The translations under genes and the position numbers were made by a program. Below are positions 20,578 through 21,540 of a DNA stretch of 64,000 bases, piece after piece. How positions within the stretch are numbered: position 1 is the first letter of the stretch; the number at the start of each line of letters is the position of its first letter. Source of the DNA: an uncultured delta proteobacterium (lineage in GTDB: Bacteria; Desulfobacterota; Syntrophorhabdia; Syntrophorhabdales; WCHB1-27); NCBI GenBank assembly GCA_963750015.1, contig CAVVPU010000053.1, forward strand, positions 3,104-67,103. Reading direction: 5' to 3'. The notes under the pieces are model-generated. The model saw nothing but the letters and a program-made list of their open reading frames with translations, had not been told where the DNA came from and made no database searches.

Positions 20578-20633
20578 CCCGCGGAGCCTCCCCTTCATAA
20601 AAAGGAAGGACCGCCGCAGGCGCGCACTGCCAG
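20578..20633 (-). repeat. Family-B repeat, degenerate short fragment (copy B4, reverse)
   Basis: AAAGCCCGCGG..GAAGGACCGCCGCAGGCGCGCACTGCC matches the end of B1 (3861-3947), with a 27-nt near-identical block. Confidence 0.65.
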
Positions 20634-20693
20634 GGTCAAACGATCCCGGATGTTTCGTAGAATGGAGTCTCCATAAGAACAAACGTGGCACCT

Positions 20694-21239
20694 TTAGTCC
20701 TTATCCATGTCGTCACACGTCTTTTTGTCTTTACTCAAACTGAATCGAGCCAATTCTTCAAAAGCGCTGTAGAAAGCGGTGCGACCGGAAATGATGCCAT
20801 CGGCCTTGCGCTCGTCATTAACGATCCGTTGTATGTCCTTGTTGCACCAGGCTTTTTCTATGTCATACCCAAGTTCGTCGTAAACCATTTCACGATCGAC
20901 GACTTCATCGCGCACCAGACAGCCTAAGGTTTCAAAGTGTCCAAAATAATCCTCTATTTGGTCGTCCCTAAATCCGGCTTTTGACTTTCCCAGACGACGG
21001 ATGGAATAGGTGCTTGGATGCTCTTGTATAGCAGTTAAAATGCGATTGTATGGAGCCGAGTCAAGTTTTGAGCTGAACTGTACCACGAAGCTTGCGGAGT
21101 TAATCTTCTTCGTGACTAACAACGCTTTGGCACCCATTTGAAGACTTATCACCGCAAGAATCACACCGACTATGATTGCAACCGATTCGGCTGCCCCGAG
21201 AAACTCTTTGAAGGCCCCCCACTTAGATCCCCCTAGCAT
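20694..21239 (-). CDS. hypothetical membrane-anchored protein in an AT-richer insert
   Basis: ATG 21239 lies 8 nt after AAAGGAG. Has one N-terminal TM (AESVAIIVGVILAVISLQMGA) and a ~130-aa soluble domain. The gene body is visibly lower in GC than its flanks. The longer ORF-track start lies inside repeat B5. Confidence 0.6.
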   Translation of the reverse strand: MLGGSKWGAFKEFLGAAESVAIIVGVILAVISLQMGAKALLVTKKINSASFVVQFSSKLDSAPYNRILTAIQEHPSTYSIRRLGKSKAGFRDDQIEDYFGHFETLGCLVRDEVVDREMVYDELGYDIEKAWCNKDIQRIVNDERKADGIISGRTAFYSAFEELARFSLSKDKKTCDDMDKD

Positions 21240-21307
21240 GGCGGCATCTCCTTTGATACGCCCTGGGGCAACGGCAAAACACCCCGCAGCAGGGCTTCTA
21301 TGTCTTT

Positions 21308-21540
21308 GCGGCCTCAAGGGCCGCCTCCCATTCCAATTGGGCGGAAGCAACCTATGAAGGCCGGACCCGCGGGATAAAATGATACGGGTCCGCGTGAGTG
21401 GGCCGGCGCATGGAGGGATCGATGAGATGTGGATGCGATTTGAGCCTTATCGGCCGCAGGCGTACTTTTGCGTACGCCGGAGGGCATATGGCGAAAAGCG
21501 CGCCGCAGATCGCGATCTCTCCATTCGCCGGCCCCGAACC
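21308..21540 (+). repeat. Family-B structured repeat, long variant (copy B5, forward)
   Basis: Has the 5' hairpin GCGGCCTCAAGGGCCGC. The stem pairs GGGCCGGCGCATGGAGGGATCG with CGATCTCTCCATTCGCCGGCCC. Inner hairpin is GGCGTAC-TTTTGC-GTACGCC. Confidence 0.8.

Follow-up and report, generated by a model that had tools for sequence, protein, structure and literature searches.

Within a 69.9-kb contig from the metagenome-assembled genome of an uncultured delta proteobacterium (5.42 Mb, 278 contigs, 55.9% GC), the stretch of 64,000 nucleotides (nt) analyzed here, hereafter the window, contains a small gene, g181, that encodes a protein of 181 amino acids (aa). On the minus strand, g181 lies between two conserved genes, one for an 85-aa protein (p85) and one that is cas6-like, and it is bordered by two non-coding repeats, a unit of a family called R on the p85 side and a full copy of family B, named B5, on the cas6-like side (Table 1). 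The evidence reviewed below makes it probable that g181 is a horizontally gained, strain-specific accessory gene, lodged inside a repeat composite that already occupied an intergenic hot spot. The open reading frame (ORF) is real and intact and has one N-terminal hydrophobic helix, in agreement with an earlier reading made from the sequence alone (the sequence-only reading), which had described a 181-aa gene with one transmembrane helix. Because the alignments of homologues begin at residue 4, the ATG start is favored over a longer TTG-initiated frame. A consensus scan found neither a sigma-70-like promoter nor an intrinsic terminator for g181. The gene is probably expressed on the minus strand, with transcription that would either start at a promoter within or close to B5 or extend into the gene from the nrd/cas6-like operon by read-through.

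Table 1. Features of the g181 locus (positions in the window).
Feature	Position	Strand	Description
p85, 85-aa conserved small protein	20188..20445	-	Flanking core gene, outside the insert
Ancestral intergenic DNA upstream of p85	20446..20517	.	Aligns to the empty site of G002 (z 5.0) up to 20517; 91-95% identical in L058, L075 and L077
R unit	20518..20631	+	Two-copy 18-mer 20518-20553; GGGGC...GCCCC hairpin; reversed B-like motif ~20574-20600; tail GAAGGACCGCCGCAGGCGCGCACTGCC 20605-20631
Strain-specific block, 935 nt	20632..21566	.	g181 with short flanks, and B5; sister strains hold other repeat modules
g181	20694..21239	-	181-aa DUF4760-family protein; N-terminal membrane anchor and helical domain; co-occurring C132 and C175
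Ribosome-binding site AGGAG	21248..21252	-	8 nt upstream of the g181 ATG at 21239; direct sequence reading
B5, full family-B copy	21296..21551	+	5' hairpin 21308-21326; 135-nt stem-loop 21400-21534
cas6-like gene	21564..22253	-	Last gene of the nrdD-grx-nrdG operon; flanking core gene; Pfam CRISPR_Cas6 E 8e-10; conserved in the family
cas6-like TGA stop	21564..21566	-	Supplied by the end of the strain-specific block

The composition of g181 is foreign to this genome. Its GC content is 46.9%, vs a gene mean of 56.4 +/- 3.4%, and among the 3,878 long ORFs of the genome it ranks at the 1.3rd percentile. In the same set, GC at third codon positions ranks at the 2.7th percentile, and a log-odds score of codon usage at the 1.7th. 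Only 2.1% of the 546-nt windows of the genome are equally AT-rich. When the protein is recoded with the codon usage of the host, GC rises to 53.8%, so that the deficit (about 7 of 9.5 points) is mostly synonymous. The 85-aa gene, the cas6-like gene and the yaaH-type gene have a normal composition. These values quantify the claim of the sequence-only reading that the gene is AT-richer than its surroundings, and they put g181 outside the normal range of the genome. A BLAST search of positions 20450-21620 against the genome also delimited the repeats around the gene: 20637-21295 occurs only once at the DNA level, and the segments 20519-20631 and 21296 to about 21550 are highly repeated.

The history of the site can be approached by comparison with relatives. 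In a genome of the same genus (G002), yaaH, p85, the cas6-like gene and nrdG occur in the same order, and the spacer between p85 and the cas6-like gene measures 118 nt, vs 1,118 nt here. In seven syntenic metagenome contigs, this spacer has 109-123 nt, or 293 nt in one case. In another lineage (L070:540-2597), about 2 kb of ORF-less, internally repeated DNA is found at the cas6-like/p85 site. The short spacers of the relatives, together with the L070 insertion, show that the ancestral spacer was short and that the site is a recurrent insertion hot spot.

Sister strains hold other fillings at this site. In L075 (a 121-kb contig) and L077, the flanks are 94-95% identical to the window and R is present at the identical left junction. 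Past R, these two alleles contain a second R and/or a linker, a diverged B copy (B'), a GCYTTTG-type tail and a hairpin resembling the 5' end of B, and no gene. In L058 (96% identical), R runs into a second R, after which the contig ends. Homology with L075 and L077 is lost at 20629-20632, immediately past ...CACTGCC (20631), and is recovered from 21567 onward. The possibility that the block is inverted with respect to the sisters was tested and rejected. B5 and the sister B' are 75-76% identical, which is the typical distance between B copies (median 75%), and B5 is not orthologous to B'. The filled arrangement with g181 recurs in two other assemblies (L056, 99.96% identical, and L076, 98.1% identical) and is therefore not an assembly artefact. 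Moreover, filled and gene-free alleles co-occur in one assembly, ERZ25039480. These alleles show that R was present before they diverged, and we infer that the gene entered the interior of a pre-existing composite. The site is occupied by A/B-type repeats, as the sequence-only reading had claimed, and the insert is absent from close relatives; conserved synteny of g181 in relatives devoid of B elements was not observed.

The repeat to the right of g181 is a genuine, forward B element, as previously proposed. A hidden Markov model (HMM) of family B, built from 78 full copies, matches B5 with an nhmmer E-value of 4e-59. Genome-wide, the family comprises 259 non-redundant hits, with 109 full-length copies before de-duplication. 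The 135-nt stem-loop in the 3' half of B5 folds at -88.3 kcal/mol (z -8.7). A search of Rfam with gathering and E-value thresholds returned nothing relevant for R or B; a lone match to a microRNA-precursor model was discarded as a chance match that reflects the long hairpin.

The repeat to the left was identified differently. The sequence-only reading had placed there an inverted B fragment, the edge of which, at 20631, was essentially well positioned. However, the B HMM, which recovers all the other B copies of the window, gives no match on the two strands of 20500-20640 with the threshold relaxed to E<=100. The reverse complement of the element shares a 24-28-nt motif with the B consensus, TATGAAGG..GGAG..CCGCGGGCTTT (z 5.3); compared with B5 itself, it gives no significant similarity (z 1.1). 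The last 27 nt of the element (20605-20631) are identical at 26 positions to a tail found at 3910-3936 of the window, after a reversed partial B copy (3833-3919), and this resemblance accounts for the earlier call. The left element is R, a family separate from B, with which it shares only a short reversed motif, and the modules of these repeats are mosaic.

By BLAST, family R is hit about 200 times in the genome. Its units are often arrayed in tandem, with periods that range from 74 to 223 nt. Across most genomes of the order, the R core (window 20537-20613) keeps an identity of 85-95%, vs about 70% for coding DNA. The orthologous R copies at this site (window, L058, L075 and L077) have a 5-bp hairpin with an AAA loop that shows compensatory changes (CTGGC/GCCAG, CGGGC/GCCCG, TGAGC/GCTCA). 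The conservation of the core and these compensatory changes suggest that the structure of R is under selection. The copy number of the 18-mer varies between orthologous R copies.

Following the sequence-only reading, R, g181 and B5 would form a single mobile unit, either composite or akin to a miniature inverted-repeat transposable element, with inverted B-type ends and g181 as its cargo. In line with this view, the whole block of R, gene and B is missing from the empty sites of G002 and of the seven short-spacer relatives, and the short reversed B-like motif of R faces B5. However, at the identical junction the three sisters have R unaccompanied by the gene, and therefore R and the gene did not arrive together. 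The silence of the B HMM on the left element and the low z-score of R against B5 also disagree with inverted B-type ends. Comparison of 20518-20631 with 21296-21551 gives no inverted repeat beyond a 17-nt, 76% match. No second copy of the R-g181-B unit was found in the genome, and g181 is seen only at this site, in near-identical assemblies. Neither a transposase adjoining g181 in the window nor an integron integrase in the genome was detected, and 26 other R...B composites are gene-free. Taken together, a single mobile unit appears very improbable. The left junction of the whole unit lies at 20517/20518, and the right junction cannot be placed against the empty site, the intergenic DNA being too diverged; no obvious target-site duplication was seen. 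Of the earlier claim that horizontally acquired cargo had been delivered into an A/B site, the horizontal and lineage-specific character of g181 stands, given its composition, its absence from relatives and the gene-free alleles; delivery by a unit with inverted ends is not supported. An integron cassette was likewise rejected (best TIGR02249 score in the genome 65 bits vs a cut-off of 265; R arrays devoid of ORFs).

The arrangement of R and B was also surveyed genome-wide, by linking the 3' end of every R to the B hit that comes next. At the 26 gene-free loci, R precedes B and both have the orientation seen beside g181, the gap between them being at most 355 nt. This gap measures 73-122 nt at 11 of them, and the g181 locus, with a gap of 660 nt, is an outlier. 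The linkers between R and B in these composites are conserved small modules, none of which adjoins g181. The idea that the gene was inserted into an intact composite linker was dropped, as no linker remnant is present on either side of it. Nine genes are flanked on both sides by R or B within 150 nt, g181 being the only one with a low GC content. Low-GC genes are not enriched within 150 nt of R or B (8/133 vs 236/4279). At another locus (G000 C204:2683-4105), a gene for a XerC/D-like tyrosine recombinase ends 44 nt from an R-B' composite. This proximity may be due to chance; the enzyme is a candidate recombinase for the repeats.

The distribution of g181 and its homologues was examined in several sequence collections. 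Contrary to the statement that the protein belongs to no recognized family, g181 matches Pfam DUF4760 (PF15956) with a marginal score (25.1 bits vs a gathering cut-off of 25, E 2.1e-5). The match spans residues 20-164 of g181 and positions 2-138 of the profile (137 of 141 covered). In a six-frame search of the genome with the same profile, g181 scored 25.2 bits, and the profile also matches 32 of 51 g181 relatives, with a best E-value of 3.5e-10. Like DUF4760 proteins, which have 150-230 aa and an N-terminal hydrophobic helix, g181 combines a small size with such a helix. Unlike DUF4760 at large, it belongs to a divergent sub-family with a motif AY-E-xY-xEKAWCN-D and a C-terminal C-x-D-x-D. 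A phmmer search against 1.84 billion representative proteins returned 172 clusters at E<=1e-3, all of small proteins. Neither 40 genomes of the family and order nor 300 sampled across the phylum yielded an orthologue. The closest full-length relatives, from genome collections and from a locus search with a 15-sequence alignment, are 42-48% identical, and the nearest relative at the nucleotide level is 69% identical. The hosts of the nearest relatives belong to Nitrospirae, several candidate-phyla-radiation groups, Acidobacteriota, Syntrophaceae/Syntrophobacteraceae and Proteobacteria. The occurrence of the family is thus rare and patchy. With tblastn, neither the 50,697 phage records nor the 72,556 plasmid records contained a match to g181, and no relative turned up among the IMG/VR viral contigs. 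PHROGs gave weak, inconsistent matches that designate no family, PADLOC-DB v2 no family at E<=1 and NCBIfam no match.

At 15 of 18 loci, the g181 homologue lies 7-20 GC points under its surroundings. Across the 18 loci, no conserved partner gene was found; a 157-aa gene that follows the best homologue was considered as a partner and dropped, as it is not conserved across these loci. The neighbors of the homologues include a Gp49/HTH_37 toxin-antitoxin pair, a PIN toxin, an IrrE-like peptidase and two small tyrosine recombinases. The latter (182-204 aa; L037:116-664 and L041:4077-4691) are mutually related and, in two unrelated genomes, their genes immediately precede those of g181 homologues. 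Another locus of the genome studied here (G000 C209:33713-35606, L005) encodes a 256-aa DUF4760-like paralogue, 31% identical to g181, with a GC content of 45%; it adjoins an N6/N4 DNA methylase gene and sits between two B copies. Its near-duplicate on C235 (L006) has frameshifts in both genes and could be a decaying copy or reflect strain heterogeneity of the genome bin. In the literature, DUF4760 was found in one paper only, as a gene-table entry in which a DUF4760 protein is listed in a genomic island beside integrases (PMC9964261), and PF15956 in none.

From the available data, the following course of events can be proposed. The spacer between the cas6-like gene and p85 would originally have measured about 110-120 nt. 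In the lineage of this genome and its sister strains, it would first have been colonized by a non-coding composite made of one or several R units, a linker and B-type modules. Then, in the present strain, everything between the first R unit and the final codons of the cas6-like gene, i.e. the interior of the composite, would have become g181 accompanied by a different B copy, B5, with nothing in common with the interior of the sister alleles. The R and B repeats would thus be the landscape that g181 entered, rather than the ends of its vehicle.

Several points weigh against this probable course of events. No donor of g181 was found. The family is nearly absent from phage and plasmid collections and has no match in PADLOC, and the expression, topology, disulfide and function of g181 discussed here are predictions. 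Moreover, the polarity between the two repeat-bearing alleles is undecidable and the sister strains could have lost the gene. Finally, the left junction falls exactly on the boundary of R and the right one is the outer junction of the sister composite, which is tidier than expected from a random illegitimate insertion. The coincidence of both junctions with module or composite boundaries hints at a role of the repeats in the recombination.

The last point bears on a repeat-guided cassette exchange, in which R and B would act as portable homology and an R-g181-B segment from a related cell would have replaced the resident interior; the repeats would then have served for delivery, without being transposon ends. 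The breakpoint located at the very end of R, the 91-95% identity of R between the alleles, the outer junctions that they have in common (20518 and 21567) and the mosaic modules across the genome are all consistent with such an exchange. So is the observation that the last 45 nt of the sister composite, which resemble the 5' part of B, align to 21361-21405 of the window (z 6.3). It should, however, be noted that no donor with g181 beside R or B was found in the 40 relatives or in metagenome searches, and that an identity of about 75% between B5 and the sister B' is too low for an efficient homologous crossover. The lack of enrichment of low-GC genes at R/B sites and the lack of a composite-linker remnant beside the gene also argue against an exchange of this type, which we consider unlikely.

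The lack of polarity between the repeat-bearing alleles leaves room for an older g181, already present in the ancestor of the strain cluster and then deleted or overwritten by repeat modules in the sisters, the low GC content being a trait of the family. Indeed, the family is AT-rich in almost every host, and g181 is intact and has kept all the family-conserved residues. However, the gene is absent from G002, from the seven short-spacer contigs and from every other genome searched, so that any ancestor bearing it would be very recent and the gene would still have been gained horizontally. In addition, its synonymous codon usage is unadapted to the host. An older g181 is therefore distinctly unlikely, and we favor the entry of the gene into a resident composite.

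Some properties of the g181 protein can be predicted. Its hydrophobic 19-mer starts at residue 13 (Kyte-Doolittle 2.49), which is also the median start in the family. Among the 51 relatives, Lys and Arg are more abundant before the membrane helix than after it (3.4 vs 1.6 residues), with an excess before the helix in 37 relatives and after it in 3. Because of this enrichment, the positive-inside rule predicts a bitopic protein with its N-terminus in and its C-terminus out. Two cysteines are conserved as a pair: 41 of the 51 relatives have both, 8 have neither and only 2 are discordant. Their co-occurrence suggests a disulfide between C132 and C175 and, together with the predicted topology, an extracytoplasmic, all-helical domain of about 130 residues. 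The AlphaFold2 model of g181, obtained with a 10-sequence alignment, is all-helical (predicted local distance difference test, pLDDT, 83.5; predicted template modeling score, pTM, 0.71), with a long N-terminal helix (residues 5-59) followed by a helical bundle. Foldseek against the PDB and a sequence-profile search of the PDB gave no meaningful matches, and no solved structure resembles the model. The only viral fold match is a remote one (BFVD A0A3G8F6F1, E 3.4e-6, template modeling score 0.60). The outward-facing, membrane-anchored architecture, the stand-alone mobility and the island-like neighborhoods of the homologues lead us to a best guess, offered tentatively, of a stand-alone protective function at the cell envelope, for instance the immunity-like exclusion of phages or toxins.

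The genes that flank the insert appear as part of the core. The sequence-only reading had treated the 85-aa gene as an orphan flanking the unit; yet p85 is conserved and syntenic in relatives, and its GC content and codon usage are normal. In 16 metagenome contigs its identity is 67-86%, and a 17th contig, which stems from a near-identical strain, has a 100% match; in four related genomes, the range is 69-79%. Over 14 sequences, the mean column identity is 83% and 41 of the 85 columns are invariant. The gene always adjoins yaaH and often the nrd/cas6-like operon. Its AlphaFold2 model (pLDDT 69) contains three strands and a helix. No Pfam family, no PDB match with Foldseek and no convincing match in PADLOC, NCBIfam or PHROGs was found for p85. 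Homology and structure prediction, proposed earlier for both proteins, thus yielded a family and a helical model for g181 and neither a family nor a fold match for p85. Between the convergent yaaH and p85 genes, a perfect GC-rich hairpin with A and T runs (window 20141-20172; AAAGAAGGCGTCCTGATCAGGACGCCTTCTTT) looks like a bidirectional terminator. On the other side, the cas6-like protein ends in ...LDKAGR* here, in ...GRPTHANL* and ...GRPTFADL* in the sisters L075 and L077, and in ...RRIEHR* in G002. Its C-terminus and its stop codon differ between the alleles because the repeat block abuts the last codons, the right breakpoint being located within the 3' end of the gene.

Modular intergenic repeats are represented by the pneumococcal BOX elements, the REP/BIME and ERIC elements of E. 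coli and the Correia elements of Neisseria. Like these elements, R and B are non-coding, hairpin-rich, mosaic, intergenic and strain-variable, with hundreds of copies. They differ by their unrelated sequences without an Rfam match, by the long-period tandem arrays of R and by the order-wide R core. In Neisseria, "minimal mobile elements" are accessory genes exchanged between conserved flanks by homologous recombination. As in this case, a single gene is present or absent between core genes at the g181 site, with alternative fillings in co-existing strains. However, natural transformation and flank-mediated exchange would be speculative for the present site, where repeats instead of core genes adjoin g181. 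Integron cassettes also combine a single small gene of foreign composition with an imperfect palindrome; R and B differ from them in their hundreds of ORF-less copies, without an ORF-attC array and without an integrase in the genome.

As it stands, the g181 case is one of ordinary accessory-gene flux and leaves the current understanding unchanged. There is a slim chance of a broader meaning. The R and B repeats could form a recombination scaffold in which interiors are swapped between fixed module boundaries without a dedicated integrase, or the DUF4760 sub-family could be a hitherto unrecognized class of stand-alone, outward-facing exclusion proteins of the envelope. If the former were true, g181 would be the first observed cargo of an integrase-free cassette exchange. 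For the DUF4760 sub-family, the analysis supplies a testable structural prediction, that of an anchor followed by an outward, disulfide-bonded helical domain. At the locus itself, the turnover of the repeats rewrites the C-terminus and the stop codon of a neighboring core gene. One and the same intergenic site is observed in three states, empty, with repeats only and with repeats and a gene, two of which co-exist in one sample. It thereby offers useful material on the remodeling of intergenic hot spots by dispersed repeats and accessory genes among uncultured anaerobes.

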